In this document: positions 2,767-41,924 of the stretch, piece by piece
How positions within the stretch are numbered: the stretch's first letter is position 1
How the letters are laid out: each line of letters starts with the position of its first letter
IMG/VR virus record: IMGVR_UViG_3300017917_002605
Location: 1 to 46,470 of that record
Length of the DNA: 46,470 nt
Strand: one strand, 5' to 3'
Origin: a virus
Taxonomy: Duplodnaviria > Heunggongvirae > Uroviricota > Caudoviricetes
Program-made: the position numbers and the translations under genes
Notes under the pieces: model-generated
What the model saw: the letters and a program-made list of their open reading frames with translations, nothing else
Database searches by the model: none
What the model was told of the DNA's origin: nothing

Positions 2767-3179
2767 AATTAGGATTCACTTGTTCATGTTTTGATTTGTT
2801 CCATGCCGGACACATTATGATGTTGAAAGAGGCAAAAGAACAATGTGACTATCTTTTGGTTGGTTTACAAACTGACCCAACAATAGACAGACCACAAAAG
2901 AACAAACCTGTACAATCTGTGTTTGAAAGATATGTACAATTACAAGCGTGTAAATATGTGGATGAGGTAGTCGTTTACGCTACGGAAAAAGACCTCATGG
3001 ATGTATTGCGTTCTTATCCAATTGATGTTAGAATCATTGGTGATGAATATCGAAACAAAGATTTTACAGGTAAAGAACTTGACATTGAGATTTATTATAA
3101 TCGCCGCAATCATAGTTTTAGTACAACAGAGTTGCGTCAAAGGGTTATCGAAGCCGAAAACGCAAAATTATACAAATGA
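2763..3179 (+). CDS. Glycerol-3-phosphate cytidylyltransferase-like (TagD-like HxGH nucleotidyltransferase)
   Basis: FDLFHAGH, VGLQTD, RYVQLQACKYVDEVV, FSTTELRQR. Confidence 0.85.
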   Translation: MKLGFTCSCFDLFHAGHIMMLKEAKEQCDYLLVGLQTDPTIDRPQKNKPVQSVFERYVQLQACKYVDEVVVYATEKDLMDVLRSYPIDVRIIGDEYRNKDFTGKELDIEIYYNRRNHSFSTTELRQRVIEAENAKLYK

Positions 3180-5952: not shown

Positions 5953-6521
5953 GTGAAGTATTAACCTTTAACACCGAAACTGGTGTCGTACAACAAGAAG
6001 ATATTCGTCCTCTTACCGTACTGAATGAAAATTTTCCTGGCCTACAACAGGTTATGCCTGAATATGATGTAACATCTTTGCCTAATCCAGTTATGTCAAG
6101 ACTGGTCAAACAAATGAAAATGACCATGAAGTTATACAACGGCCTTGGTCTTTCGGCAAATCAATGTGGTGTATTACAGAGACTGTTTGTTATCGGCAAC
6201 GGCGATTTTCAAATGGTCTGTATCAACCCAAAAGTGGTAAATGTTGCGGCACAAGTTAAGGCAGACAAAGAAATGTGCTTGTCTTTCCCAGCACTTGCGC
6301 TTACAATAGAAAGACCTACAGGTATTGATGTAGAATTTTATGATGAAAATGGGCAGAAACAAGAAATGCATCTTGATGGTTTGACTGCTCGTTGTTTTTT
6401 ACATGAACTGGACCACCTGAACGGCGTTCGTATGGTTGACCATGTTAAACCACTTGCTCTCGCAATGGCACGTAAGAAACAACAAAAATTGATTAAGAAC
6501 TACGTTAGAAGAAACAAATAA
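5949..6521 (+). CDS. def: Peptide deformylase
   Basis: GLGLSANQCG, EMCLS (EGCLS variant), HELDHLNG. Confidence 0.9.
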   Translation: MSEVLTFNTETGVVQQEDIRPLTVLNENFPGLQQVMPEYDVTSLPNPVMSRLVKQMKMTMKLYNGLGLSANQCGVLQRLFVIGNGDFQMVCINPKVVNVAAQVKADKEMCLSFPALALTIERPTGIDVEFYDENGQKQEMHLDGLTARCFLHELDHLNGVRMVDHVKPLALAMARKKQQKLIKNYVRRNK

Positions 6522-7861
6522 TGGCATATTCCTTTGACCCAAAAGATGATGTAGAAGAACAGTGGAGAAAATGGTGCGATGCAAATCCACCAGATTCTTT
6601 CGTGCATGTGAATGAAGAAGAACTCCGCCAGAAAATGGTTGAGGACTTAACCTATGTCTCTCAGATGGATGTCAAAGAATATACACTGTACCAAAAGTGG
6701 TGTGAAATTCAAGACAAGTATCCTACAAAAACAGTAAATGATTTGTGGGAAGGAGAGAAGGTTGTACTTGAAGATGATGCACAGGCAGAAATGATTGCTG
6801 CCGTGAAGAACAACATTTGGATTCCAGAAAAACCAGAAGACTATCTGAACCTGAAACCTATTCTAGTATATACAGATGATTCAGGTTCAATCACTTCTAC
6901 AGGTCTTGATGGTTCGGCGGTTGAGATTGCCAAGAAACGCAGTAATCTACCAGAAGTTTGGAACACCATTCGTAACTTCATTTCAACAATGAAGAACAAC
7001 TCCAACATTGGTCGTAACTTGAATTTTTTGGTGATGGATGAAATCACTGGCAAGTACCTTGGTGTTATTTGCATTTCATCCGACTTCCTTGATTTGACTC
7101 CACGTGATAACACGATTGGTTGGCCAAGAGAATTGAAGACACAAGGCGGCATGATTAATCATACTGCCATCGGTTCAACGATTGTTCCTTTTCAACCACT
7201 AGGTTACAACTACGTTGGTGGTAAGTTGCTTGCTCTATTGTGTTTGTCTGATGAAGTACAACGCCTATGGAAGAAACAGTACGGTGATATTCTTGTTGGT
7301 GTAACGACAACATCACTATATGGCAAAACAAAAGCAGGTGGTCTTTCTCAGTATGACAATCTTGACCATTGGTTGCCTATGGGTTTCTCCAGTGGTTCAG
7401 TATCTTTTGAACCTGAAAAAGAAACACGTTATCTGATTCGTGAATGGTTGAAGACTAATCATACACGCAAATATTTTGAATGGTACGTTGCCAAGAAACC
7501 TAGTGGTCAACCACATAAACGTGACCACAAGAATCGTTCTCTAAACTTCACATATTCGAAGTTGAAGATTCCGAAAGAAATCATCAAGGCAGAACATCAT
7601 CGTGGCATTTACTTTTCACCTCTGTATGATAACACGTATGAATTCCTGCGTGGTGAAATTACCGAAGACAAGTTGATTAAATCATTCGACACATCGTATG
7701 ATGCTCTGGTTTCAATTTGGAAAGACAAGTTGGTGAAAGGTCGTATCAAACAACTGATGAAGAAGAATCAGGTATCTTACGAAACATTGTTCTATGATGA
7801 CCTAATCTATCTGACATGGGAAGAAACAAAGACGAAATATTTGCCTCAAGTTGGTAGATAA
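6521..7861 (+). CDS. DUF4338/DruA-like protein, probable Mom-related GNAT-fold transferase (paralog 1)
   Basis: IVPFQPLGYNYVGGKLLALLCLSDEV...W...YG...TTTSLYG...SQY...W..MG.SSG resembles the DUF4338 (DruA) core; fold assignment is from memory, not a search. Confidence 0.65.
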   Translation: MAYSFDPKDDVEEQWRKWCDANPPDSFVHVNEEELRQKMVEDLTYVSQMDVKEYTLYQKWCEIQDKYPTKTVNDLWEGEKVVLEDDAQAEMIAAVKNNIWIPEKPEDYLNLKPILVYTDDSGSITSTGLDGSAVEIAKKRSNLPEVWNTIRNFISTMKNNSNIGRNLNFLVMDEITGKYLGVICISSDFLDLTPRDNTIGWPRELKTQGGMINHTAIGSTIVPFQPLGYNYVGGKLLALLCLSDEVQRLWKKQYGDILVGVTTTSLYGKTKAGGLSQYDNLDHWLPMGFSSGSVSFEPEKETRYLIREWLKTNHTRKYFEWYVAKKPSGQPHKRDHKNRSLNFTYSKLKIPKEIIKAEHHRGIYFSPLYDNTYEFLRGEITEDKLIKSFDTSYDALVSIWKDKLVKGRIKQLMKKNQVSYETLFYDDLIYLTWEETKTKYLPQVGR

Positions 7862-7880
7862 AGTGGATATATAATTATAT

Positions 7881-7948
7881 GCGGTGAGTGATAGCACGAC
7901 ATTGGGTTCCCCTCAATGTTACCTGAGCAAAGCAGAGACACCGCTCCA
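7881..7948 (+). ncRNA. Non-canonical tRNA-Gly(UCC)-like RNA, 68 nt, with encoded CCA
   Basis: Acceptor GCGGTG/CACCGC + U73 + CCA; 3-bp D-like arm GTG-ATAG-CAC; 7-bp stem ACATTGG/TCAATGT with 7-nt loop GT-TCC-CC; 3-bp T-like arm CTG-AGCAAAG-CAG; TATAAT at 7870-7875; terminator just downstream. Confidence 0.75.
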
Positions 7949-7955
7949 CATACCG

Positions 7956-7989
7956 ACCGTTGTTGTAGAAATACAACAGCGGTTTTTTT
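7956..7989 (+). terminator. Intrinsic terminator after the tRNA-like RNA
   Basis: 12-bp stem ACCGTTGTTGTA/TACAACAGCGGT, GAAA loop, T-run. Confidence 0.85.
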
Positions 7990-7993
7990 ATGC

Positions 7994-8021
7994 TTGCCTT
8001 TCCTGTTGGTTGTGTTATACT
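7994..8021 (+). promoter_or_regulatory. sigma70-type promoter
   Basis: TTGCCT, 16 nt, TATACT with TGn extension. Confidence 0.6.
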
Positions 8022-8045
8022 GTCCTTTTGATTAGGAGAGCAACC

Positions 8046-8237
8046 ATGTTAAATCAGGAACTAGAACAAAAGTTTTACTTTTCCGTGTTCGATGTGTCGG
8101 ATGCTTTCCGAGAATTCGGTGTACGTGCCGTCCTTGAGGAGGTACGACAAAATCCCCTTATAAATCAACAGCTTACCGAATATATAAGGACGCTTGACAT
8201 TCCTGCGGAAACCTGTATAATGGACAGTGTTGAGTGA
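8046..8237 (+). CDS. Small hypothetical protein (63 aa)
   Basis: AGGAG SD upstream of ATG 8046; the longer 7884 start in the track runs through the ncRNA and terminator and is unlikely. Confidence 0.65.
   Translation: MLNQELEQKFYFSVFDVSDAFREFGVRAVLEEVRQNPLINQQLTEYIRTLDIPAETCIMDSVE
8194..8221 (+). promoter_or_regulatory. sigma70-type promoter for the peptidase-vWA gene
   Basis: TTGACA (8194-8199), 16 nt, TATAAT (8216-8221). Confidence 0.75.
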
Positions 8238-8251
8238 CTAAGGCAAACTAA

Positions 8252-10612
8252 ATGACTACTTTTTCCGTTGAATCAAAATCGCAGCTGGCCAAACTGTTGG
8301 CCACTGAAAACCTGACCATTCAACACCAAAAGATTCGTACAGCCAAGTTTGACCCTACAAACCGTGTGCTGTATTGTCCTATTTGGAAAGATATGTCCGG
8401 TGACCTCTATGACCTGCTGATGGGACATGAGGTTGGTCACGCATTGGAAACTCCTGCTGACGGTTGGCATGAAGCTGTTAAGGAAGGTGTTTCTAAAAAG
8501 TACAAGCACTTCCTGAATGTTGTGGAAGATGCCCGTATCGAAAAGAAAATCAAGCGCCGTTATCCTGGTCTCCGTGCCAGCTTTGTTCGTGGTTATAAAA
8601 ACCTGCTTGACCGTGACTTCTTCGGTATCGCTGACCGTGATGTAAATACACTTCCTTTCATTGACCGTTTGAATCTGTACACCAAAGGCGGCACCCTTCT
8701 TGGTATTGAATTCAATGCTGAAGAAACGGAAATGCTTCGCCGTGTGGAATCTTGCGAAACTTGGCAAGATGTTTTGAATGTTACTGCTTCGGTTTACGAA
8801 TATTCTAAAACCGAACAACAACAAATGCAAGAGCAAGAAATGGCTTCAACTGCCATTGGTTCTGGTGATTATGATGAATATGAAGATGATTACGAATATG
8901 ATTACGATTCGTATGATGAAAATGAAGATGAACCTGAAGACACCGAAACTGGTGATTCCAATGAATCGTCCGATGAAGATGATGAAGGTGGCAAACAGAA
9001 CGTAGGTGAAAAACGTGACGTTGAAGAAAAATCGGAAGAAACCAAAAATTCTTCCGATGAAGAAACCGACAAATCGCCTGATGGTGAAGACACCGATGTT
9101 GTCAATAAGTTGAATCGTTGGAAAGATTCGACCGAATCCTATCACAAAGATTTTGAACCTGTTTGTTCAACTGATGAAACTTTCCGTGAAAACGAATCAC
9201 AGCTTCTGAATGAAGTGTGTAAGGAATATGTGTATGCCAATATTCCTACTCCTAACATGAAGCAAATTCTTACACCTTACAATCGTGTGCATGAACAACT
9301 TGAAGAAAAATTCAAGGAGCACCAAATTGATAGTGCAAAACTGTACAACGATTTTAAGTCCAAGAATGAGCGTTACATTTCTTTGCTTGCCAAAGAATTT
9401 GAAATGCGTAAGGCAGCTCGTTCATATTCTAAGACCAAAACTTCCGTGTCTGGCGACATTGATATTTCTCGCCTGTGGAAGTATCAAGTCGATGACAACA
9501 TTTTCAAGAAACTGCAACGCACACCTAAAGGCAAGTCCCACGGCCTTGTGATGTTGCTTGACCGTTCTGGTTCGATGACTGACAATATGGCTGGTTCTCT
9601 TGAGCAGATTATGGTGCTTGCATCGTTCTGCCGCAAAGTGAATATTCCTTTTGTTCTGTATGGTTTTGGTGACTGTGAAGATTCTCGCCGTATCGATTTT
9701 CCTAATGAGTTGAAGACCAAGTGCTTTAGTAACAACATCGGTGAATTGAACATGAGCAATATGTACCTGCGTGAATATTTGAATTCACGTATGGGTAATG
9801 CCGAATTCACCCGTTGCATGAGAAACTTGGCTGCTCTGAAAAAGTCCTACGAATCTCGGTACAGTCGTTATCTCCGTCCTTATTCGGAACACCTGAGCAA
9901 TACTCCTTTGCTGCAAGCAATGGTTGCCATGAAGAACATCGTTCAAGATTTCCGCAAAGTGAATAATCTTGACCTTGTTAATATGGTCGTTGTGCATGAT
10001 GGTGATGCCGATTCGTGTGATTACGTTATCGCTCAACGTAAAGGTTATGATGGTTCTATCTATTTGGGTGCCATGCCATTTGACAATCGCCGTCAAAATG
10101 TTGTGATTCGTGATGTTAAAAACAAAATCGAGATTCAACTTCGTAGTGAAGGTCCTAATCACCAATATGATGATGCGCTTCGTGCCGGCCTTTTCAAGTG
10201 GTTCAGCAAAGTGACTGGTGCCAAGATTTTTGGTTTCTTCATCACTGGCGGTAACCGCAGCACCAAGTTTGCTGTGTGTAACAAGTATATTGACAAAGAT
10301 GGCAGAAACGTTTATGATATGATGGGTATTGACCGTAATGCAAATTACGTTCATCGTCCTGACCGTAGTGAGTACGTTTCTTCAATTTCTAAGATGTTGA
10401 CAAAAGATAAATTTGTTGAATCTTTCAATGAAGGTTACACTGCTTTCTACATGATTCCTGGTGGTGAACACCTGCGGGTCGTTGATGAAGAATTGAATAT
10501 TGACGGTAAAGTTACCGCTGGTAAATTGAAGAATGCGTTTATGAAAGTTGCCAAGGCAAAGCAAGTGAATCGTGTTCTGGTTTCTCGGTTTATTCAAGGT
10601 ATCGCAGCGTAA
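8252..10612 (+). CDS. Zincin metallopeptidase-acidic linker-vWA protein (CobT-like partner of MoxR AAA)
   Basis: GHEVGH (HExxH) and NVVEDARIE; long D/E-rich linker; LLDRSGSM MIDAS and VHDGDA. Confidence 0.8.
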   Translation: MTTFSVESKSQLAKLLATENLTIQHQKIRTAKFDPTNRVLYCPIWKDMSGDLYDLLMGHEVGHALETPADGWHEAVKEGVSKKYKHFLNVVEDARIEKKIKRRYPGLRASFVRGYKNLLDRDFFGIADRDVNTLPFIDRLNLYTKGGTLLGIEFNAEETEMLRRVESCETWQDVLNVTASVYEYSKTEQQQMQEQEMASTAIGSGDYDEYEDDYEYDYDSYDENEDEPEDTETGDSNESSDEDDEGGKQNVGEKRDVEEKSEETKNSSDEETDKSPDGEDTDVVNKLNRWKDSTESYHKDFEPVCSTDETFRENESQLLNEVCKEYVYANIPTPNMKQILTPYNRVHEQLEEKFKEHQIDSAKLYNDFKSKNERYISLLAKEFEMRKAARSYSKTKTSVSGDIDISRLWKYQVDDNIFKKLQRTPKGKSHGLVMLLDRSGSMTDNMAGSLEQIMVLASFCRKVNIPFVLYGFGDCEDSRRIDFPNELKTKCFSNNIGELNMSNMYLREYLNSRMGNAEFTRCMRNLAALKKSYESRYSRYLRPYSEHLSNTPLLQAMVAMKNIVQDFRKVNNLDLVNMVVVHDGDADSCDYVIAQRKGYDGSIYLGAMPFDNRRQNVVIRDVKNKIEIQLRSEGPNHQYDDALRAGLFKWFSKVTGAKIFGFFITGGNRSTKFAVCNKYIDKDGRNVYDMMGIDRNANYVHRPDRSEYVSSISKMLTKDKFVESFNEGYTAFYMIPGGEHLRVVDEELNIDGKVTAGKLKNAFMKVAKAKQVNRVLVSRFIQGIAA

Positions 10613-21678: not shown

Positions 21679-21751
21679 AGCGGGTTAGTGAAATGGTATC
21701 ACGGTGGACTCATAATCCACAGTTCCGGTTCGACTCCGAGGCCCGCAACCA
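21679..21751 (+). tRNA. tRNA with CAT anticodon (Met; initiator-like acceptor stem)
   Basis: Cloverleaf: acceptor AGCGGGT/GCCCGCA, D-stem GTGA/TCAC, anticodon stem GTGGA/TCCAC with loop CTCATAA, TTCGACT T-loop, A73, CCA; CTAAATA late box at 21667-21673. Confidence 0.9.
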
Positions 21752-28763: not shown

Positions 28764-29369
28764 ATGAAACATAAAACTCTTTACAAAAAACTGGCTGCAT
28801 TTGCCCCTAAGTTTTACGGTGAGAAAACTATGGGGCAAATTATGTATTGGGTTCGCAAAATGTTGAAACCCCATGGTGTAAAAGTTAATCGTATAATCGA
28901 TAAAACAAATACAGCATTAAGTGCTTTCACGGTTGGTGGTTTCTATGACCCATACCATGAATTTGATGAAGCAGATATTGAAATGTATTTGGTGTTTAAT
29001 GAATGCGAAAGAGATAATGCATTCTTTTTTGATGAAGAAACCACCGATATATTAATCAATGAATTGTTTATCACATTATCGCATGAGAAAAGACACAAGT
29101 ATCAATTTAGAAAACGTGGTCAAAATTACGGTGCAAAATATAAATGCAAAGTAACCGATGAAAATCTGAAACAACAATTAGAATATTATGGTGACTCAGA
29201 TGAAATTGATTCTTATGCTATTGAACATGTTTTAGAATTACAATTACATAAAGCAACTGAAGTAACCACACGTGATAAGTATCGTGAATTGTTTGCTAAA
29301 TATGACCCTAAGATTTACAATAAGTTTTTGAAGAAGTATTATAAGTTTAATCAACAAATTATATTATGA
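28764..29369 (+). CDS. Hypothetical zincin-like protein
   Basis: LSHEKRH (HExxH) plus downstream EIDSYA. Confidence 0.55.
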   Translation: MKHKTLYKKLAAFAPKFYGEKTMGQIMYWVRKMLKPHGVKVNRIIDKTNTALSAFTVGGFYDPYHEFDEADIEMYLVFNECERDNAFFFDEETTDILINELFITLSHEKRHKYQFRKRGQNYGAKYKCKVTDENLKQQLEYYGDSDEIDSYAIEHVLELQLHKATEVTTRDKYRELFAKYDPKIYNKFLKKYYKFNQQIIL

Positions 29370-30481
29370 ATTTGAATAAAGAACAAGCAATTCATTGTGC
29401 AAATGTATTCTCGGATTATTTTGATAAGTTTGGTCGTATCGATGAATACATGAGAGAACAAAAACTGGCAGCAATGGCCGAAAGGCCATTTGTTTTGCCA
29501 GGTATGGGACCAGAAGAAGATTTGTTTTCTGATTTCTCCGTGTCGCCGGCTGACATGGAGTTTGAAATTGTGGAACTACCACAAGACAGATGGGATACCT
29601 ATCTTGATATGATTTCAAGTCACTCAAACATGACCAGTATTCCTGGTCGTTGTTTGCGTTTGGCTGTATGGGAAAAGACCACTAAGAAATGGTGTGGCTT
29701 CATTCGTCTTGGTTCTCCTGTTATCAACTGCAAACCACGTAATGAAATGTTGGGACAAGTATTCACCCAGCAAGAGGGTGGTGCTCAACGTTTCAATCAA
29801 TGTGCAACGATGGGTTTTGTTATTGTTCCTGCACAACCATTTGGTTTCAATTATCTTGGTGGTAAATTGCTGGCAGCCATCTGTACATCACATGAAGTCC
29901 GTAAAATGATGGACGAAAAGTATGACATGACCACGTGTCTGTTTGAAACCACCAGTTTGTATGGTTCATCAAAGACTGTATCACAGTATGATGGTATGAA
30001 GCCCCTGATTAGGTTCAAAGGTCTGACTGATAGTGATTTCTTGCCTATGTTGCACGGCAAGGCATACACCGATATTAAAGACTATGTTGAAGGTATCATT
30101 GGTGAACCTTTGGTTCCAGAAGATGCTTCATCACGTAAGTTGAAGATTTCCAACAGAATCATTTCACTCACCAAGGTTGCACTGAAAGGCACACCTGAAG
30201 GTGAAAAATTTAATCAGACTATCGAAAACGCAAAGAATCTGAATGAACAGAAACGATACTTCATTTCAGATTACGGTTTCAAAAACATGGTAGATTTCGT
30301 CAATGGCAGTGCAACTAAGTTGGTTCCTGGTGAAAACTATGAGAAACATAATCTTGCAAACATCATTGATTGGTGGAAGAAAAAGGCAATCAATCGTTAT
30401 GAAACCCTGAAGGCGGAGAACAGAATCCGAACCGAACAAGAGGTCTGGACTGGTGACAAACCTATTGACATTATCAGGTAA
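29366..30481 (+). CDS. DUF4338/DruA-like protein, probable Mom-related GNAT fold (paralog 2)
   Basis: IVPAQPFGFNYLGGKLLAAICTSHEV, ETTSLYG, SQYDG align by eye with the 6521-7861 protein. Confidence 0.65.
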   Translation: MNLNKEQAIHCANVFSDYFDKFGRIDEYMREQKLAAMAERPFVLPGMGPEEDLFSDFSVSPADMEFEIVELPQDRWDTYLDMISSHSNMTSIPGRCLRLAVWEKTTKKWCGFIRLGSPVINCKPRNEMLGQVFTQQEGGAQRFNQCATMGFVIVPAQPFGFNYLGGKLLAAICTSHEVRKMMDEKYDMTTCLFETTSLYGSSKTVSQYDGMKPLIRFKGLTDSDFLPMLHGKAYTDIKDYVEGIIGEPLVPEDASSRKLKISNRIISLTKVALKGTPEGEKFNQTIENAKNLNEQKRYFISDYGFKNMVDFVNGSATKLVPGENYEKHNLANIIDWWKKKAINRYETLKAENRIRTEQEVWTGDKPIDIIR

Positions 30482-34505: not shown

Positions 34506-35122
34506 ACTTCAGTTTCGGTATAACAACCGATTATTCTGACCTGAATCGGTTGAATGAAATTAAAGAATCTATTCGTGGTTTGCAAATACCGAATTACGAG
34601 ATTCTAATAATTGGCGGCCAACATCCCGAAGATGAGGATGATACATGCCACATCTTCTTTGATGAGGCTGCCAAACCAAATTGGGTTACACGTAAAAAGA
34701 ATACATTGGCACAGGCCGCCAAGTATGATAACGTTGTTATCTTCCACGACTATTACGTGTTCGACAAAGACTGGTATCAAAACTTTCTAACATTCGGTGA
34801 AGATTGGGACGTTTGTTCTAATGCTCAACGGTTAATTACCGATAAGAGACATTTCACCGATTGGGTTTGTTGGGATTCACCAATCTTCCCACGTTATACA
34901 TCATTACATTATGATGACTGGTCACATACTAAGTATATGTATCAATCTGGTGGTTACATGATTGTCAAAAAGAAATTCATGGAGAAATGTCCAATGAATG
35001 AAGAAATGACATGGGGTACCGCCGAAGATGTTGAGTGGTCTTTGAGAATGAGAGAGATTGCCAACTGGAAATGTAATGGTAAATCTATAGTGAAACATAA
35101 TAAAAGGCATCGTGATGCATAA
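34502..35122 (+). CDS. GT2-like glycosyltransferase
   Basis: YEILIIG, RKKNTLAQAAKYDNVVIFHD, GTAEDVEWS. Confidence 0.7.
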   Translation: MNFSFGITTDYSDLNRLNEIKESIRGLQIPNYEILIIGGQHPEDEDDTCHIFFDEAAKPNWVTRKKNTLAQAAKYDNVVIFHDYYVFDKDWYQNFLTFGEDWDVCSNAQRLITDKRHFTDWVCWDSPIFPRYTSLHYDDWSHTKYMYQSGGYMIVKKKFMEKCPMNEEMTWGTAEDVEWSLRMREIANWKCNGKSIVKHNKRHRDA

Positions 35123-36485
35123 GTTAATTATTTTTGACCTTGATGGTGTGTTGATTGAATCCCGTGAGTTGCATTATCATTCGCTGAATGAAGCACTCGC
35201 TAGAATTGATATGAAGTATGTCATATCACGTGAAGAACACCTTTCATTGTATGATGGTCTGAACACCACAAAGAAATTAGAAATGTTGGCGCAGAAAAAA
35301 GGTCTGCCCAATTCCTACTTCAATCAGATTTGGCAAGACAAACAAACTGCCACATTCAAACTGATTAGACAGATTCCAAAAAACAATAACCTGAGGCAAA
35401 TGTTTGCAAACATTCAATCAAAAGGTTGGAAGATTGCAGTTGCCAGTAACTCCATTCGTGAAACGGTAAAGTTGGCATTATTGTCGATTGGTGTCATGGA
35501 ATATGTTGATTACTATGTCAGTAATGAGGATGTAAAGAGAACCAAACCTTACCCCGAAATGTACTGGCAATGTATGACGGCATTAAATGCACTTCCAAAA
35601 AGTACAATTATCGTGGAAGATAGTCATATTGGACGCCAAGGTGCAACCGATTCTGGCGCACATCTTTTGCCTGTCGAAAACGCAAATGACTTGACTTCAT
35701 ATAAAGTTTTGTGTAAAATACAAGAGATTGAAGAAAAAGAACACCACCATCATATACCATGGAGAGATAATAAATTGAACGTACTTATTCCTATGGCAGG
35801 TGCTGGCTCACGTTTTGCACAAGCCGGTTACACCTTCCCTAAACCCCTGATTGAAGTCAGAGGCAAACCTATGATTCAGGTAGTTGTAGAGAACCTGAAC
35901 ATTCAGGCAAATTATATTTTCTTGGTTCAAAAAGAACACTATGAGAAATACAACCTGAAATATCTACTTAATCTGATTGCACCAAACTGTAAGATTGTAC
36001 AGGTTGATGGTGTGACAGAAGGTGCTGCTTGCACCACATTGTTGGCAAAAGAATTGATTGACAACGACCAACCATTGGTTATGGCAAACTCTGACCAGTT
36101 TATCGAATGGGATTCCAACAATGTCATGTATTCGTTCCAAGCGGATGGTATTGACGGTGGCATTCTAACATTTAAAGCAACACATCCAAAGTGGTCGTAT
36201 GCCAAGTTAGATGAAAACGGTTTCGTCAGTGAAGTTGCAGAAAAGAAACCAATCTCCGATAATGCGACCGTTGGTGTTTATTACTGGAAGAAAGGTTCTG
36301 ATTACGTTAAGTATGCAGAACAAATGATTGAAAAGAACATTCGTGTAAACAACGAATTCTATGTTTGTCCTGTTTTCAACGAAGCGATTGCTGATGGCAA
36401 GAAAATTCGTGTGAAACAAATTGAGAGAATGTGGGGCATTGGTACTCCAGAAGACCTCAACTATTTCTTGGAGAACCACAAATGA
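35112..36485 (+). CDS. HAD phosphatase fused to sugar/polyol-phosphate nucleotidyltransferase
   Basis: N-terminal FDLDGVL, SNS, KPYP, EDS..G; C-terminal IPMAGAGSRF...PKPLI, NSDQ, VAEKKPIS, GTPEDL. Confidence 0.88.
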   Translation: MMHKLIIFDLDGVLIESRELHYHSLNEALARIDMKYVISREEHLSLYDGLNTTKKLEMLAQKKGLPNSYFNQIWQDKQTATFKLIRQIPKNNNLRQMFANIQSKGWKIAVASNSIRETVKLALLSIGVMEYVDYYVSNEDVKRTKPYPEMYWQCMTALNALPKSTIIVEDSHIGRQGATDSGAHLLPVENANDLTSYKVLCKIQEIEEKEHHHHIPWRDNKLNVLIPMAGAGSRFAQAGYTFPKPLIEVRGKPMIQVVVENLNIQANYIFLVQKEHYEKYNLKYLLNLIAPNCKIVQVDGVTEGAACTTLLAKELIDNDQPLVMANSDQFIEWDSNNVMYSFQADGIDGGILTFKATHPKWSYAKLDENGFVSEVAEKKPISDNATVGVYYWKKGSDYVKYAEQMIEKNIRVNNEFYVCPVFNEAIADGKKIRVKQIERMWGIGTPEDLNYFLENHK

Positions 36486-37255
36486 ATAACAATATGACAG
36501 AAGAAAAGATTCAACAATATGCCGCAATGGCCAAGGCATTTATGAATCGACCAATTGGCCATCCTAACAACGTAGTAGGCAACTACGGATGGCATGAAAA
36601 ATATCCTTATGAAAAATACCTTCTTACTAGACCTTCTGATGAAAGTAAAACCGTGGTTCCAACCAATCAGTCTTTACTTGCTGTTGATTTTGGTTGTGGG
36701 CCTGGCCGCATGGTCAATCGTATGTCTAAGCTCTTCAAACGAGTTGATGGCATTGACGTATCCTCCTATGCGTTAGAATGGGCTCGCAAACAATTTCCAG
36801 AAAACAATTTCTATGAAGCCAGTGGTGCAGATTGTGGTGATGTTCCTGCAAACACTTATGATTTTGTTTACAACACTATTTCAATTCAACACATTCCCTG
36901 TCGTACTATTCGACAAAGAATTTATGAAGGACTATATCGTTGCATGAAAAAAGGTGCATCAATCACCTTGCAACTGGCATATAATCCAACATATGTTGCT
37001 GGTGTTTGGTCAAATGATACCGAACATGCATCATATGAATCCGACTTCTTTGATACCGACAAAACTAACGGTCATGCTGATTGTGTAATTAATGAAAAAG
37101 ATTTGCCTTTGCTGCAATCAGATTTTGAAAAAGTAGGTTTCAAAAATGTAGAGATTCGATTAGCTGAAGTTGCTAGTTTATATCCGAACCTAGAAGGTGA
37201 ATATCACGCACCTTATTGGGCTTCTCATTGGTTGTTTATTTACGGAAACAAATAA
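36482..37255 (+). CDS. Class I SAM-dependent methyltransferase
   Basis: VDFGCGPGR, GIDVS, YDFVY...ISIQHI; ATG at 36482 overlaps the previous stop. Confidence 0.85.
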   Translation: MNNNMTEEKIQQYAAMAKAFMNRPIGHPNNVVGNYGWHEKYPYEKYLLTRPSDESKTVVPTNQSLLAVDFGCGPGRMVNRMSKLFKRVDGIDVSSYALEWARKQFPENNFYEASGADCGDVPANTYDFVYNTISIQHIPCRTIRQRIYEGLYRCMKKGASITLQLAYNPTYVAGVWSNDTEHASYESDFFDTDKTNGHADCVINEKDLPLLQSDFEKVGFKNVEIRLAEVASLYPNLEGEYHAPYWASHWLFIYGNK

Positions 37256-37256
37256 C

Positions 37257-38039
37257 ATGCAAGTATGGATTTTGACGTTTAATCGTCCTGTTGTATTGAA
37301 CAGACAGATTAAAACATTTGGTGAACTTGGTTATGATGTTCATATCTTTTCCAATTATCCTGAAGTAGAAATTTACGCAGAGAATAAAGATTACATCAAA
37401 GAAGTATTCTTTAATAACCTATCTGACCCTGAGGCAAATTCTTATTGTGCTAGGTCATGGAACAATATCTTCATCAAATGTTTCAAGACCGAACAAGAGG
37501 CAATCTTTGTACAGGATGATACATGGTGCAGACCAGAGATTGGTAAACTAATCGAGGAAAACAAAGATAAGTTTGACCTGATTTGGGGACCTGCTGGCGA
37601 TACATTCTTCTACATGAAGAAAAGTGTTCTTGCAACCATTGGTTGGTTTGATGAGCGTTATCTTGCTTGTTATTGTGGTGATGCTGACTTCCTGAAACGT
37701 GCATGGCATTTTTATGATAAAGATAGATTGTCTATTGCTGAGACACACGATTGGGGATGGTTTCATAATGATGTAGGAATTCGTAATCATATTTCTTGGG
37801 ATTTACGTTCTAAATGTTTAGATGATAATTATGTAAATCAACATCAAGAAAATGAAGCCAAAATTGGTTCCTCAAACTACATGTTAGTACACTCACAAGG
37901 ACACTTTAAGAATAAATGGGCCACACCAGGTAATGGTATTAACGGTATTGGTCCTATTTGTTTATATGAAGAAGCACCACAGGTTGCAGAAATTGATTGG
38001 TATCCTTGGTTTACTAAAAAATATTTGAGAGGTGAATGA
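37257..38039 (+). CDS. GT2-family glycosyltransferase
   Basis: ILTFNRP, ARSWN, FVQDD, GWFDERY...GDADF. Confidence 0.75.
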   Translation: MQVWILTFNRPVVLNRQIKTFGELGYDVHIFSNYPEVEIYAENKDYIKEVFFNNLSDPEANSYCARSWNNIFIKCFKTEQEAIFVQDDTWCRPEIGKLIEENKDKFDLIWGPAGDTFFYMKKSVLATIGWFDERYLACYCGDADFLKRAWHFYDKDRLSIAETHDWGWFHNDVGIRNHISWDLRSKCLDDNYVNQHQENEAKIGSSNYMLVHSQGHFKNKWATPGNGINGIGPICLYEEAPQVAEIDWYPWFTKKYLRGE

Positions 38040-38500
38040 TGCGTATTATCGCACATAGGGGATTAATCAACGGTGCCGATAAGGCATTTGAGAATAGACC
38101 AGAAACTATCGAACTTGCATTTGATAATGATTTTGATGCAGAGATTGATATCTGGCGTGAAGATGGTGAATGGTTTCTAGGACATGATGAGCCACAATAT
38201 CCAGTAGATTCTGCTTGGATTATGTCGGCAGCACCACGAGCTTGGTTTCATTGTAAGAACTCAGAAGCAATGTTGTGGATGGCCAATCATTCCAAAGGTG
38301 TTAATTTCTTTTGGCACGATAGTGATGACTATACCCTCACCAGTACCGGATATGTGTGGGCATATCCAGGTTCTAAAGTTGAAGGCAATACGATTTTAGT
38401 TTTGCCAGAACGTATTATGAAAATTGAAGAAATTAAAAACATTCACTGTTATGGTGTTTGTACAGACTTTGCTATGCAAGCCAGAGAGGCACTTAAATGA
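38036..38500 (+). CDS. Glycerophosphodiester phosphodiesterase-like protein
   Basis: IIAHRG, EIDIW, GHD, HCKN, GVCTD. Confidence 0.75.
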   Translation: MMRIIAHRGLINGADKAFENRPETIELAFDNDFDAEIDIWREDGEWFLGHDEPQYPVDSAWIMSAAPRAWFHCKNSEAMLWMANHSKGVNFFWHDSDDYTLTSTGYVWAYPGSKVEGNTILVLPERIMKIEEIKNIHCYGVCTDFAMQAREALK

Positions 38501-39459
38501 AAATTTGTTTTGTTGTTCACCGATATGCACCATTTCCTGGTGGTTCTGAATACTATGTCCAACAGATGGCGGAAGAATGTGTTCAGAGACACCATGATGT
38601 AACTGTTATTGCTGGTGAACACAAAGGTGATTTGAATGGTGTTCGTGTAACAAGTGACGCACATTATTTGAATGACCAAGATTTGGTTGTAGTTCACGGC
38701 GGTGATGTTGGCGTACAGAACTTTGTTTTGTCACATGCAAGACATATAAACTCACCTGTCTTGTATATGATTATCAAACCGTCCGATAGTCAAGTATGCG
38801 TTCAGGCATTACATGACTGTGAATTCATTGGTTGTTCCGCACCCGAGGATTGGGACCATGTACGTAAACATGGCGTGGAAAATAAGGCACATAAAGTAAT
38901 TCACGGTATTTCTCCTGTTGATTGTATCGGCAAAAAAGGCAGATTCAAACACCAGTACGGTATTCCTGCCGACAAACGCATGTTTCTATCTTGCGGTGGG
39001 TATTGGCCGAACAAAAAGATGATTGAACTTGCCAAGGCATTTGAGTCCGCAAACCTAGAGGACAGTATCTTAGTCACAACTGGTTACGATAATCGATTCG
39101 GTATCATGCCTCATGCGTCCGAGAAGGTCTTTCCTTTGATGGTCGATGACCCTAAGGATGTCAAGGATGCGATTGCCGATGCCGATTGTTATGTGATGAA
39201 CTCGGATGCCGAAGGTTTTGGTCTGGTAATCCTAGAATCTATGATTAACAAGACACCTTGGATTTCTCGAAATATCGCTGGTGCCAAACTTTTGGCTGAA
39301 CATGGCCAAGTGTACAATACAGAAGATGAATTGGTTGAATTATTGCGTGGTTTCAAAAGAAACGACACCAAAGTTAAAACTGCTTACGAATACGTAATTC
39401 AGAACCACCTAATCAAGAACACGGTCGATGATATTCTAGCTCTAATAAATACTAAATAA
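38497..39459 (+). CDS. GT4-family (GT-B) glycosyltransferase
   Basis: PFPGGSE, PNKKMIELAKAF, SDAEGFGLVILESM. Confidence 0.85.
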   Translation: MKICFVVHRYAPFPGGSEYYVQQMAEECVQRHHDVTVIAGEHKGDLNGVRVTSDAHYLNDQDLVVVHGGDVGVQNFVLSHARHINSPVLYMIIKPSDSQVCVQALHDCEFIGCSAPEDWDHVRKHGVENKAHKVIHGISPVDCIGKKGRFKHQYGIPADKRMFLSCGGYWPNKKMIELAKAFESANLEDSILVTTGYDNRFGIMPHASEKVFPLMVDDPKDVKDAIADADCYVMNSDAEGFGLVILESMINKTPWISRNIAGAKLLAEHGQVYNTEDELVELLRGFKRNDTKVKTAYEYVIQNHLIKNTVDDILALINTK

Positions 39460-39491
39460 CATATAAACTTTAACTGCTGTAGAGGCGGGGT

Positions 39492-41924
39492 ATGAAATTT
39501 AGAGATTTTATTAGAGAAGAAAAGGAAAAGCATGCCGTCCTGGCTTTCGGACGCATGAATCCACCAACAACAGGACATGAGGTCCTGGTCAATAAAGTCA
39601 AAGAGGTAGCAAGACAAAACAACGCATCACACCATGTTGTGCTATCTCACTCACAAGACAAAGCAAAGAATCCTCTAACACCCTCACAAAAGGCATTACA
39701 TGCCAGACGATTCTTTCCTGGTACCAATATCACATTGGCTACCAAAGAACATCCAAACTTTCTAACTCAGGCACAAAAGTTACATCAAAAAGGTGTAACT
39801 CATTTACACATGGTTGCTGGTTCTGACCGTGTTCCTGAGTATGATAAACTGTTAAAGAAATACAACGGCACACATGAAGGTGCCTTGTTTAATTTCAAAT
39901 CAATCAAAGTACATAATGCAGGCGAACGTGACCCTGATGCCGATGACACAAGTGGCATGTCTGCATCAAAAATGCGTGGTCATGCGGCTGCATCCAACTT
40001 TAAAGAATTCAAAAAAGGTATTCCTTCTCACGTACCGGAACATCATGCAAGAGAATTGTATGACCATGTTCGTAGAGGTATGGGTATTCGTGAAAACATG
40101 GATTTCACATTACCAATGGATGAAGAAGTTGCACAACTATTGTATGAAGGTGTGCATGATAAAGGTATCTTTAAGGCAGTATTCTTAGCAGGTGGTCCAG
40201 GTTCTGGCAAAGATTATGTATTGGACAACACACTTGCTGGTCATGGCTTGACAGAAATCAATTCCGACAAGGCACTAGAGTTTTTGATGGACAAACACGG
40301 TCTTGATAAGACCATGCCTCCTTCTGAACAAGAGAAACGTGATTACATTCGTGGTCGTGCAAAGAACATTACTGAATTGCGCCAGCGTTTGGCTCTACTA
40401 GGTCGTAATGGTCTTATCATCAATGGTACTGGTGATGATGTTGAAAAATATAAGAAGATTAAAGAACGACTAGAAGAAATCGGTTACGAAACTTCAATGG
40501 TTTCTGTTGTGACTGATGATGAAGTTTCTCGTCAGCGTAATATTGAACGTGGTCAACGTGGTGGTCGTTCAGTGCCTGAAGAAATTCGTAAAGCAAAATG
40601 GGATGCAGTTACCAAAGCACGTGCTGAAATGGCAAAGATGTTTGGTGATAACTATGTAGAGTTTGACAACTCACAAGATTTACGTACTGCTGACCCTGAA
40701 ACAGTCAAAGCCAAAAAAGATGAAATGCTTGGTATATTCAAGCGTGTTAAATCTTTTGTTGAAACACCACCATCTACCGAAAAGTCTCAGGCCTGGGTTG
40801 CACAAGAACTGAGTAAAAAAGACAATACGCTTGTTTCAGATGAAGATGCTGAAAAACATCCTCATCCAGATAATGAATCTTCTCAGCAAGCTCGCCAATT
40901 AGGTTTGACATATTATGGATTCGGCCGTTGGGGTAAAAACGGAGAGGTCACTCACCATTCCGTACATGGTCAACTGGTTGCAATACAAAAAGAAAAAATT
41001 AAAGATGTGAGTGTGCCTATCGATGGTTCATCACAGAAACCACCAGTTACCGTTAAGAAGGTAACAGCAAAGAACGCTACAATGAAAACAGAAAGCCTCG
41101 ACCATGAGTTTGAAAGTTTCTTAACTGAAGCAGTAACCATTACAGTTAAGGCTGACACAGCTGAAGAAGCTGCAAAAGCAGTCAAACTATTATCTAACGA
41201 ACCTGATGAACAAGAAGAAGTTGAAGAAGAAGTACAAGACGGTTTCTCTGATTTGACCGCCAAACAACTTCTAACTTTGAATCAAACATTCGGCGTTCAA
41301 GCAGAATCAAAAGACAACAAGAAACACATCTTCCCTTCCGAACATCTATTGAAAGATTCAAACGGTAAAGTGCGTGTGTTTATGATGCGCCGTGCTGCAG
41401 CAGCAGAAGCACACCAAAAAGGTGGCCAGGTGCAAAAATCAGGAAATGGTTATGTCGTTAAATTAAAGGAGGATACTCATGTTACAAGCGTTAATCAATC
41501 TGTTCAAGAGAAAACAACCACAAGTGCAGGAAGCACCGTACAAAGTGGAAGTGGAACAACCAGTTCAGGAAGTCTCATTACCGAAAGTAGAGACTCCGGT
41601 TGTGGTTGCGGCTGTGGAGGAGCAGAAGCCAGTTGCCAAGAAAAAGGCACCGGCAAAAAGAAAACCATCGCAGAAGTCAAAGCCAGTTGGTCAAAAGAAA
41701 AAGCAGTAAAAGAATCTATTGACAAAGGCATCGAACCAGGTCTTTCGATGGCAACTTCTGGTGAAAATTTGGTGCGTGGTGCAACAAAGAATAAACCAAA
41801 AGAAAAACCATTAGAAGAAATGCAGGGTGATGAAACCACCGCTTCAATTGGTGACCAAAAAGAAGATGAATTAAAGAAGAAAGGCATTAGTCTTTCATCA
41901 TTTAAAAAGAGAAATTACGTATGA
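39492..41924 (+). CDS. HxGH nucleotidyltransferase + Zeta/Pnk-like P-loop kinase fusion with a long modular tail
   Basis: FGRMNPPTTGH, AGSDR, SASKMR; GGPGSGKD, INSD, RNIERG..GGRSVP; N-terminus MKFRDFIREE; late boxes at 39444-39458. Confidence 0.8.
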   Translation: MKFRDFIREEKEKHAVLAFGRMNPPTTGHEVLVNKVKEVARQNNASHHVVLSHSQDKAKNPLTPSQKALHARRFFPGTNITLATKEHPNFLTQAQKLHQKGVTHLHMVAGSDRVPEYDKLLKKYNGTHEGALFNFKSIKVHNAGERDPDADDTSGMSASKMRGHAAASNFKEFKKGIPSHVPEHHARELYDHVRRGMGIRENMDFTLPMDEEVAQLLYEGVHDKGIFKAVFLAGGPGSGKDYVLDNTLAGHGLTEINSDKALEFLMDKHGLDKTMPPSEQEKRDYIRGRAKNITELRQRLALLGRNGLIINGTGDDVEKYKKIKERLEEIGYETSMVSVVTDDEVSRQRNIERGQRGGRSVPEEIRKAKWDAVTKARAEMAKMFGDNYVEFDNSQDLRTADPETVKAKKDEMLGIFKRVKSFVETPPSTEKSQAWVAQELSKKDNTLVSDEDAEKHPHPDNESSQQARQLGLTYYGFGRWGKNGEVTHHSVHGQLVAIQKEKIKDVSVPIDGSSQKPPVTVKKVTAKNATMKTESLDHEFESFLTEAVTITVKADTAEEAAKAVKLLSNEPDEQEEVEEEVQDGFSDLTAKQLLTLNQTFGVQAESKDNKKHIFPSEHLLKDSNGKVRVFMMRRAAAAEAHQKGGQVQKSGNGYVVKLKEDTHVTSVNQSVQEKTTTSAGSTVQSGSGTTSSGSLITESRDSGCGCGCGGAEASCQEKGTGKKKTIAEVKASWSKEKAVKESIDKGIEPGLSMATSGENLVRGATKNKPKEKPLEEMQGDETTASIGDQKEDELKKKGISLSSFKKRNYV
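41479..41709 (+). CDS. Nested +1-frame small Lys/Pro/Glu-rich protein
   Basis: AAGGAGG SD at 41466-41472, ATG 41479; MLQALINLFKRK...EAPYKVE...KKKAPAKRK. Confidence 0.65.
   Translation: MLQALINLFKRKQPQVQEAPYKVEVEQPVQEVSLPKVETPVVVAAVEEQKPVAKKKAPAKRKPSQKSKPVGQKKKQ

Follow-up and report, generated by a model that had tools for sequence, protein, structure and literature searches.

What is a tRNA-like RNA for when it is encoded directly behind a gene of the DruA (DUF4338) family in a phage genome? We analysed this question in a 46,470-nt stretch of DNA (the window), where a gene for a DruA-family protein, P1, in a locus that is part of a large aquatic T4-like phage, is followed by a small RNA with an encoded CCA end (Table 1). 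An earlier note had proposed that the two form a pair, a Mom-like enzyme of the GNAT fold and its private glycine-donor tRNA, and the layout from which it started was confirmed. P1 matches the Pfam DruA/DUF4338 family PF14236 with an E-value of 7e-19 and 68.5 bits (the family cut-off is 27 bits), the first base of the RNA (G1) lies 19 nt downstream of the P1 stop codon, and a strong terminator follows; the covariance model (CM) R2 scores the RNA at 63.8 bits (E ~1e-13), and the RNA/terminator region folds with z = -4.8 relative to shuffled sequences. The TATAAT box ends 5 nt 5′ of G1, a spacing from which transcription may start at G1 or next to it. In most related loci the RNA is preceded by this box too, in many of them together with a TTGACA-like -35 element; in the window the box is not among the promoters listed by the promoter scan, because the -35 element is missing. 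The 63-aa ORF further downstream has its own promoter-like site (7994-8021), and a spurious long ORF in the same frame (7884-8237) overlaps the RNA. The neighbours of P1 are T4-like replication genes, peptide deformylase and CobT/CobS-like genes.

Table 1. Features of the P1/RNA module, its surroundings and the second DruA-family gene of the window.
Feature	Coordinates	Strand	Basis
P1, 446-aa DUF4338/DruA-family GNAT protein	6521..7861	+	Pfam match, predicted fold
TATAAT box within conserved TATATAATTATAT element	7870..7875	+	Read in sequence
68-nt tRNA-Gly-derived cloverleaf RNA	7881..7948	+	CM R2, covariation
Intrinsic terminator: 13-bp stem, 4-nt loop (hairpin 7955-7984), then T run	7955..7991	+	Terminator scan, fold
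63-aa ORF 3′ of the terminator	8046..8237	+	Bounds the P1/RNA module, outside it
P2, second DruA-family paralogue, 371 aa	29366..30481	+	PF14236, phrog_19197

The RNA forms a four-arm cloverleaf, with a 7-bp acceptor stem (7881-7887 paired with 7938-7944), a mini D hairpin (7888-7897), a long 'anticodon' stem (7899-7919) capped by the 5-nt loop UUCCC (7907-7911), a T arm (7921-7937), a discriminator U (7945) and the encoded CCA (7946-7948). ARAGORN called no tRNA at 7881-7948, and Rfam, searched at gathering thresholds and with E-values up to 10, gave neither a tRNA nor any other credible family in the region; a match to SSRC10 (26.8 bits versus a gathering score of 56) was driven by the terminator and was rejected. 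Across the homologues, which are 63-69 nt long, acceptor positions 6 and 7 are frequently mismatched, the D arm is reduced to 3 bp and a loop of 3-4 nt that lacks GG, and the T loop retains only the U54-like, A58-like and G53:C61-like positions; a G18G19 D loop, a canonical T loop (UUCRANY) and recognition by tRNA finders are all absent. The T loop of the window's own subclass carries AGCAA, which is not family-wide; a link to Ro60/Y-RNA-like elements was for this reason rejected as a trait of the whole family. The 'anticodon' loop is only 4-5 nt long (4 nt in the 63-nt classes), on a stem of 5-9 bp that differs between classes, and a 7-nt loop with U33 on a 5-bp stem was not found across the RNA classes aligned.

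CM searches found copies of the RNA, one each, in about 100 related phage contigs, once per locus and always on the strand of the gene; of 75 evaluable contigs in the first set of relatives, 69 had one homologue per locus. RNAalifold on a plain MAFFT alignment recovered the acceptor stem only, and aligning these RNAs took a structure supplied by hand together with CM realignment in two rounds. With the resulting alignment, the covariation that the earlier note had asked for was found in all four cloverleaf helices: 92.3% of cells are paired (42-50% with slid partners), double-change cells number 194 versus 63±6.6 in shuffles, and compensatory change is seen in 17 of 23 pairs. The pairs closing the 'anticodon' loop, columns 25:33 and 26:32, covary too. 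The tRNA ancestry of the RNA and its place at the 3′ end of a gene could point to a tRNA pseudogene in decay, or to an RNase P or 3′-end processing signal for the P1 transcript. We consider this highly improbable, as the four helices are maintained by compensatory change despite only about 15 invariant bases in common among the homologues, these bases are identity elements and not processing determinants, and the RNA is retained in tRNA arrays as well. There is hardly any doubt, in our view, that the RNA is a real, selected tRNA-Gly derivative, and it is a solid result that these RNAs form an undescribed, widespread family of viral tRNA-Gly derivatives, which annotation pipelines overlook.

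We analysed which positions of the RNA have been kept. In 35 distinct sequences, G1 C2 G3 G4 / CCGC-U-CCA and the CC of the distal loop are invariant. The determinants measured for bacterial alpha2beta2 GlyRS are G1:C72, C2:G71, C35, C36, U73 and a purine4:pyrimidine69 pair (PMC10464925). This identity set is complete and invariant in the 35 sequences, including the loop CC and G4:C69; a class found in tRNA arrays differs by its A3:U70, a pair outside the determinant list. Judged from these positions, the RNA is probably charged with glycine by the host GlyRS. The varying length of the 'anticodon' stem, however, fits poorly with one fixed geometry on the anticodon-binding domain of GlyRS. In the complete 168.9-kb genome of the phage, which has 33 tRNAs, the next-best matches of the CM are two canonical tRNA-Gly genes (34 and 32 bits), both with the same GCGG...CCGC-U-CCA ends as the RNA; the phage encodes tRNA-Gly(UCC) and tRNA-Gly(GCC). 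The RNA has in common with canonical tRNA-Gly (RF00005) the acceptor GCGG.../...CCGC, U73, CCA, the CC at the anticodon positions and, in the T arm, the equivalents of G53:C61 and A58; it differs by its size and by the loss of the 7-nt anticodon loop and of G18G19.

If the end of the stem opened, a 6-7-nt loop would read UCC, ACC or CCC for glycine codons, making the RNA an unusual working decoder. Indeed, with one pair opened, the window's RNA has a 7-nt loop containing U33 and the anticodon UCC, and the forms found in cultured SAR11 phages (pelagiphages) have true 7-nt loops, one of them being called tRNA-Gly(ACC) by ARAGORN. Such decoding is, however, very unlikely, because the closing pairs covary, opening the 4-nt loops of the 63-nt classes yields no more than 6 nt, the elbow has been lost (no D-loop GG, aberrant T loops), and the phage already has two canonical tRNA-Gly; to our knowledge, ACC is also not an anticodon normally used by bacterial tRNA-Gly. 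From the covarying closing pairs, the 4-5-nt loops, the missing GG and the presence of the canonical pair, the RNA is almost certainly unable to read codons on the ribosome, which, together with its descent from tRNA-Gly and its encoded CCA, agrees with the earlier note. The pelagiphages HTVC008M and Mosig carry both P1 and the RNA, the latter as an unannotated aberrant 74-nt tRNA-Gly(ACC) form 2-4 kb from P1; in Mosig a spurious CDS covers one such RNA. The decoding parts are dismantled stepwise, from the 74-nt pelagiphage form through 67-69-nt to 63-nt forms, while the identity set and the acceptor/T minihelix are kept by selection. We know of no clearer natural example of a tRNA freed from the ribosome and not from the synthetase.

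We compared the positions of the RNA and of P1 across phages. Of 104 unique evaluable homologues, 64 are followed by an RNA that starts 2-72 nt 3′ of the P1 stop codon; among 80 homologues of a second sample, only 35 had the RNA within 1.5 kb. Thus, the expectation that the RNA is conserved next to homologues of the gene holds for the first set of relatives, but the pair is not obligatory: adjacency of P1 and the RNA is clade-specific and not universal. In most cases the RNA comes with a promoter-like box and a terminator of its own. In one clade it begins 2 nt past the P1 stop codon without a promoter of its own, and must therefore be co-transcribed with P1 there; in other clades the same RNA classes lie in tRNA arrays far from P1, 8 nt from tRNA-Gly(UCC). 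The RNA classes are, moreover, shuffled relative to the P1 tree. A non-canonical tRNA-Gly-like RNA is present in all seven complete or near-complete P1 genomes (G000, G003, G009, G015, G016, HTVC008M and Mosig) and in none of eight large P1-negative phage records with a CCA-type tRNA-Gly; no RNA was seen in several P1-bearing fragments. As the P1 phages all belong to a single group, shared ancestry confounds this co-occurrence. A whole-record CM search missed the true G015 copy, which an exact-pattern search found, so that the lack of a CM match in a whole record, as in five cyanophages, is weak negative evidence. Near the distant DruA homologues P0131, P0155 and P0194, in other elements, no such RNA was found, indicating that the DruA family does not need one in general. 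P2, the second paralogue of the window (35% identity to P1 across 162 aa), is of the type conserved in T4-like cyanophages (PF14236, E 4e-9, 36.4 bits; phrog_19197, E 8e-135), and a CM search near it gave no adjoining RNA match. In a 38-kb high-GC phage that has no DruA gene, a 69-nt look-alike is located upstream of a DNA methylase; convergence, or a remnant of an attachment site, may explain it.

It is possible that the RNA is independent of P1, and is a decoy or sponge for host factors that bind the acceptor end of tRNA-Gly or Gly-tRNA-Gly, for example TacT/AtaT-type GNAT toxins or acceptor-end nucleases, the slot behind P1 being merely permissive. The RNA's own promoter-like box and terminator, its presence in tRNA arrays and the shuffling of its classes, as of a mobile cassette, are consistent with this, as is the action of TacT-type toxins on Gly-tRNA-Gly (PMC13219725). 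However, a pure decoy for factors binding the acceptor end would have no need of the distal-loop CC, which is invariant, the RNA was detected only in P1-carrying phages (0 of the 8 P1-negative ones), and one clade must co-transcribe it with P1. We therefore consider a decoy rather unlikely.

Does P1 itself look like an enzyme that would use such an RNA? P1 is predicted with high confidence to have a GNAT alpha/beta core (residues ~106-390) within a full-length DruA architecture, its N- and C-terminal extensions being also present in bona fide DruA; the fold match to E. coli DruA (P0DW34) is full-length, with E 3e-15. P1 has both the Pfam family and this predicted architecture in common with DruA of type I Druantia, but, unlike it, lies in a replication block of a lytic T4-like phage, and DruB-E genes, and with them the type I Druantia gene set, were not found in the annotation of its neighbours. 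Membership of the family by itself gives P1 no mechanism.

Mu Mom (PF25680, PDB 8bv8), the precedent invoked by the earlier note, indeed uses Gly-tRNA-Gly, of which it reads mainly the acceptor end, for N6-adenine modification of dsDNA (PMC13219725). We compared P1 with Mom by closest fold, the HTH-like insertion and the catalytic residues R111, S124, D149 and R151. The anticipated GNAT fold was found and Mom is the top PDB fold match of P1, but it is tied with other GNATs, including ordinary acetyl-CoA-dependent acetyltransferases. Likewise, the segment TTTSLYG...SQYDNLDHWLPMGFSSG (residues 263-296) is the most conserved block of the P1 family, with T263, T264, S265, L266, G268, Y278 and G292 invariant or nearly so in the alignment, but it did not prove to be the Mom-type motif it had been taken for: hhalign of the P1 family gave 0.9% probability against Mom and 0.15% against an alignment of 33 Mom homologues. 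The Mom Pfam model has no match in P1, for which the Pfam scan lists only DruA, the Mom HMM has none in the whole genome, and a search of the P1 sequence against PDB chains returned nothing at E up to 10. A collinear P1/Mom series seen by eye (Q225/R111, the beta5 strand, Y278/Y159, RGIYF/RGVYL) was left unused because it has no statistical support.

After DruA, P1 comes closest in AlphaFold/Swiss-Prot to TmcA, a tRNA cytidine acetyltransferase whose GNAT domains match it with E ~5e-3, and NAT10 is among the PDB fold matches of P1. P1 also retains a Q-x-x-G motif that, on our reading, would stand where GNATs bind CoA. These likenesses, and the invariant loop CC, would suit a P1 that acts on the RNA and not from it, the RNA being its substrate, regulator or antidote: P1 would then acylate a base (for example a loop cytidine, compare C34 for TmcA) or else the charged glycine at its amino group (compare TacT). 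This is unlikely, however, given that TmcA matches P1 weakly (TM by query 0.2-0.27), that P1 has no TmcA helicase module, that distant DruA homologues have no partner RNA, and that pelagiphages keep P1 with the different 74-nt form kilobases away.

Non-proteogenic tRNA-Gly isoacceptors of S. aureus, the other precedent, serve the glycyl transferases FmhB/FemA/FemB have altered D and T regions and are poor partners of the translation apparatus (PMC7826273). By analogy, the phage RNA would be, as they are, an extra copy that GlyRS still charges and that feeds a GNAT-fold aminoacyl transferase. The staphylococcal tRNAs, however, are of full size, with an ordinary anticodon loop of 7 nt, and are recognised as tRNAs, whereas the phage RNA is viral and 63-69 nt long, has a D stub of 3 bp and a loop of 4-5 nt, and goes undetected by tRNA finders; the putative enzyme is of the DruA and not the Fem family. 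Bacterial Y RNAs (YrlA, with Rsr/Ro60) are likewise small non-coding RNAs that mimic parts of tRNA, but their tRNA-like modules are internal and, unlike the phage RNA, have neither a free CCA acceptor end nor the synthetase identity set.

In the explanation we favour, the 68-nt RNA descends from a phage tRNA-Gly, no longer decodes and has a dedicated role. Charged by the host GlyRS, it would provide a private pool of activated glycine, or else an acceptor-end mimic. Its most likely user would be the GNAT-fold P1 encoded directly upstream: on the model of Mom and the Fem transferases, P1 would draw on the glycine at the CCA end and pass it to an acceptor; the neighbouring RNA and the fold of P1 suggest aminoacyl-tRNA as its acyl donor. 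Our favoured guess for the acceptor would be phage DNA, since P1 and its paralogue lie in the replication/recombination block and, outside the family, the proteins closest to P1 in structure acylate amines of nucleobases. The array-borne copies of the RNA, the tied Mom match, the Q-x-x-G at the CoA position and the variable stem all count against this reading. We consider the whole chain, including the RNA as glycine donor for P1, plausible, with a probability of about 0.35-0.38.

If the RNA does feed P1, the Mom principle, a charged tRNA as donor for DNA modification, would extend to the much larger DruA/DUF4338 family, whose members are found in Druantia defence systems and cyanophages and as modules of transposases. 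It is doubtful, though conceivable, that DruA/DUF4338 GNATs as a whole are aminoacyl-tRNA-dependent nucleic-acid modifiers for which aquatic T4-like phages supply a private glycyl carrier. If true, the carrier would be a tRNA-Gly reduced to what GlyRS and the transferase read, in an abundant phage group that includes cultured SAR11 phages, and hypermodification of the genome would not compete with translation. It would also offer a first way into the mechanism of Druantia DruA and of the DUF4338 modules that transposases carry.

The RNA at window positions 7881-7948 is recognised by neither ARAGORN nor Rfam. The earlier note had placed it exactly, behind a P1 stop codon ending at 7861 and ahead of a terminator hairpin (Table). 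We collected 80 IMG/VR contigs encoding homologues (70-84% identity) of P1, the 446-aa product of the DruA/DUF4338 gene upstream, and in most of them a related sequence lay right behind the P1 stop codon. A covariance model was built from 13 sequences and a hand-drawn cloverleaf, then realigned and rebuilt. The rebuilt model matched exactly once, and on the coding strand, at each of 69 loci and in the window; six loci with sufficient downstream sequence had no match, and five more were cut off. Among 35 distinct sequences, standard pairs filled 92.3% of cells, compared with 42-50% when partners were slid by 1-3 columns; both sides had changed in 17 of 23 pairs, and double changes occupied 194 cells, against 63±6.6 in shuffles. 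Covariation, which the earlier note had proposed as a check, thus involves all four helices of the cloverleaf, and largely excludes that the RNA is a pseudogene or a processing signal. It is a new, selected, tRNA-Gly-derived RNA family.

Table. Positions of the RNA family and of neighbouring features in the window and other records
Feature	Record	Position	Strand	Remarks
P1 (DruA-like gene)	window	6521-7861
RNA	window	7881-7948		ends in CCA
Terminator hairpin	window	7955-7984
Small ORF	window	8046-8237
Promoter, perfect sigma-70 consensus (TTGACA, 16 nt, TATAAT)	window	8194-8221		within 3' end of small ORF; precedes CobT-like gene at 8252
Lone tRNA-Met(CAU)	window	21679-21751		in replication block, 60 kb from main tRNA array
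P2, second DruA-family paralogue	window	29366-30481		371 aa; phrog_19197
Possible modification cluster	window	35112-41924		HAD-nucleotidyltransferase fusion, methyltransferase, GT4 glycosyltransferase, 810-aa protein with Zeta-toxin-like P-loop kinase domain
tRNA array (ARAGORN)	G000, whole genome of the window phage	81995-89953 and 104907-105277		outside window; 32 tRNA genes and permuted tmRNA-like gene
74-nt RNA relative	HTVC008M	91140-91213 (L308:1341-1414)		unannotated; 7-nt loop reading ACC
74-nt RNA relative	Mosig	7779-7852 (L309:1480-1553)	minus on L309	unannotated; 7-nt loop reading ACC
Array-borne RNA subclass	G015	139614-139679	minus	A3:U70 (GCAG.../...CUGC) replacing G3:C70
Array-borne RNA subclass	G022 (L294)	3057-3122	minus	A3:U70 (GCAG.../...CUGC) replacing G3:C70
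69-nt RNA	L122	6183-6251	minus	6-nt loop AUCCAA
Small conserved hairpin	L001; L002	5590-5625; 5012-5040		GCTGTGCGA-NN-TGACGCA

The window phage encodes 33 tRNAs. After the RNA itself, the best matches of the model in the whole genome were tRNA-Gly(UCC) and tRNA-Gly(GCC) (34 and 32 bits), with nothing else above 18 bits. Negatives of the model on whole records call for caution, as a whole-record search missed the G015 copy, which an exact-pattern search alone recovered. Both tRNA-Gly genes have the ends of the RNA, GCGG...CCGC-U-CCA. Elsewhere in the phage group, copies of the RNA are found within the tRNA array, in several cases no more than 8 nt from tRNA-Gly(UCC). The RNA is therefore a remodelled tRNA-Gly copy. 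The cultured SAR11 myophages HTVC008M and Mosig carry a 74-nt aberrant tRNA-Gly(ACC) with non-canonical D and T loops, the D loop lacking GG. ARAGORN calls only the HTVC008M copy, and a spurious 'hypothetical protein' CDS (Mosig_000011) is annotated across the one in Mosig. Together the forms of the RNA look like a reduction series, from 74 nt through 67-69 nt to 63 nt.

Only about 15 invariant bases are common to the 35 sequences: G1 C2 G3 G4 and their partners, the discriminator U, CCA, two distal-loop Cs, and the T-arm equivalents of G53:C61 and A58. Among them are the determinants measured for bacterial α2β2 GlyRS (G1:C72, C2:G71, C35, C36, U73 and purine 4 with pyrimidine 69; PMC10464925). 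Judged by these bases, the RNA is probably charged by GlyRS. The RNAs measure 63-69 nt, and other parts of the molecule are reduced: the distal loop has 4-5 nt on a 5-9-bp stem closed by covarying pairs, and the D arm is cut down to a 3-bp hairpin lacking GG. With this architecture it is probably excluded from decoding, the rival being that it is an odd decoder.

An RNA of the same design (GCGG.../...CCGC-U-CCA, 3-bp D stub, canonical T arm) lies immediately 5' of an N6/N4 DNA methylase gene in L122, a high-GC phage of 38 kb that has no DruA gene. In the two pelagiphages (L001 and L002) a different small hairpin occupies the slot behind P1 in place of the tRNA-like RNA; in Mosig the slot of this hairpin is behind MazG.

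The GNAT-fold DruA-family protein is the usual upstream neighbour of the RNA. The earlier note's pairing held in the 69 loci and the window, and for 64 of 107 unique P1 proteins; 40 were not RNA-adjacent (three loci were cut off), and when a locus lacking the RNA was used as the seed to draw a second set of 80 homologues, only 35 of these had it within 1.5 kb. Adjacency requires at least four state changes on the P1 tree. RNA subclasses, recognisable from the T loop, are scrambled with respect to that tree, and members of one subclass may lie behind P1 or in a tRNA array; the RNA thus acts like a cassette, recombining and moving to new sites. A TATAAT-type box of its own, often with a -35 element, accompanies the RNA in most cases, while in one clade the RNA begins 2 nt past the P1 stop codon, so that the two must share a transcript. 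A non-canonical tRNA-Gly-like RNA is present in every complete or near-complete genome with P1 that was checked, adjoining P1 (G000, G003, G009), in the tRNA array (G015, G016) or 2-4 kb downstream of P1 (HTVC008M, Mosig); eight large phage records that have CCA-type tRNA-Gly and lack P1 yielded none. This co-occurrence is suggestive, though confounded by common descent. No RNA was found in several P1-bearing fragments, or in the vicinity of remote DruA homologues carried by other mobile elements.

P1 belongs to Pfam DruA/DUF4338. A 64-sequence alignment yielded a confident AlphaFold2 model (pLDDT 93.2, pTM 0.91), which superposes at full length on E. coli DruA (Foldseek E 3e-15); the core (residues ~106-390) is predicted to have the GNAT fold that the earlier note expected. 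In the fold search Mom came out nearest in structure, though level with other GNAT proteins. The Mom-type sequence likeness also proposed there found no support: the hhalign values were 0.9% for Mom itself and 0.15% for a set of 33 Mom homologues, so that no sequence-level link could be shown, and the whole phage genome lacks a PF25680 (Mom) gene. In the searchable literature, DUF4338 appears just as a GNAT domain (PMC10853773), DruA-like folds are noted in Synechococcus phages (bioRxiv 10.1101/2025.08.05.668817), and neither function nor RNA partner is described for DUF4338/DruA-like proteins.

The window belongs to a complete T4-like genome (168,911 bp, terminal repeats, 40% G+C), whose closest named relatives are HTVC008M and Mosig (Kyanoviridae; 54-60% P1 identity). 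P1 and the RNA are located in the replication/recombination block, in the order UvsW, gp47, gp46, peptide deformylase, P1, RNA, small ORF, CobT-like, CobS-like, gp45, gp44, DNA polymerase, UvsX, gp41, 2OG oxygenase, P2. In T4-like cyanophages the P2 type lies between clamp-loader genes, and GenBank names such proteins 'putative cytoplasmic protein', 'iron-binding protein' and, once, 'methylcarbamoylase mom'. The cluster at 35112-41924, whose glycosyltransferase matches the 'GT4-conflict' model just under cut-off, is a possible module for sugar-nucleotide or DNA/surface modification.

It is possible, with about one chance in three on our analysis, that P1 uses the RNA as a glycyl donor; rivals are that the RNA is an acceptor-end decoy, independent of P1, or is itself a substrate of P1.
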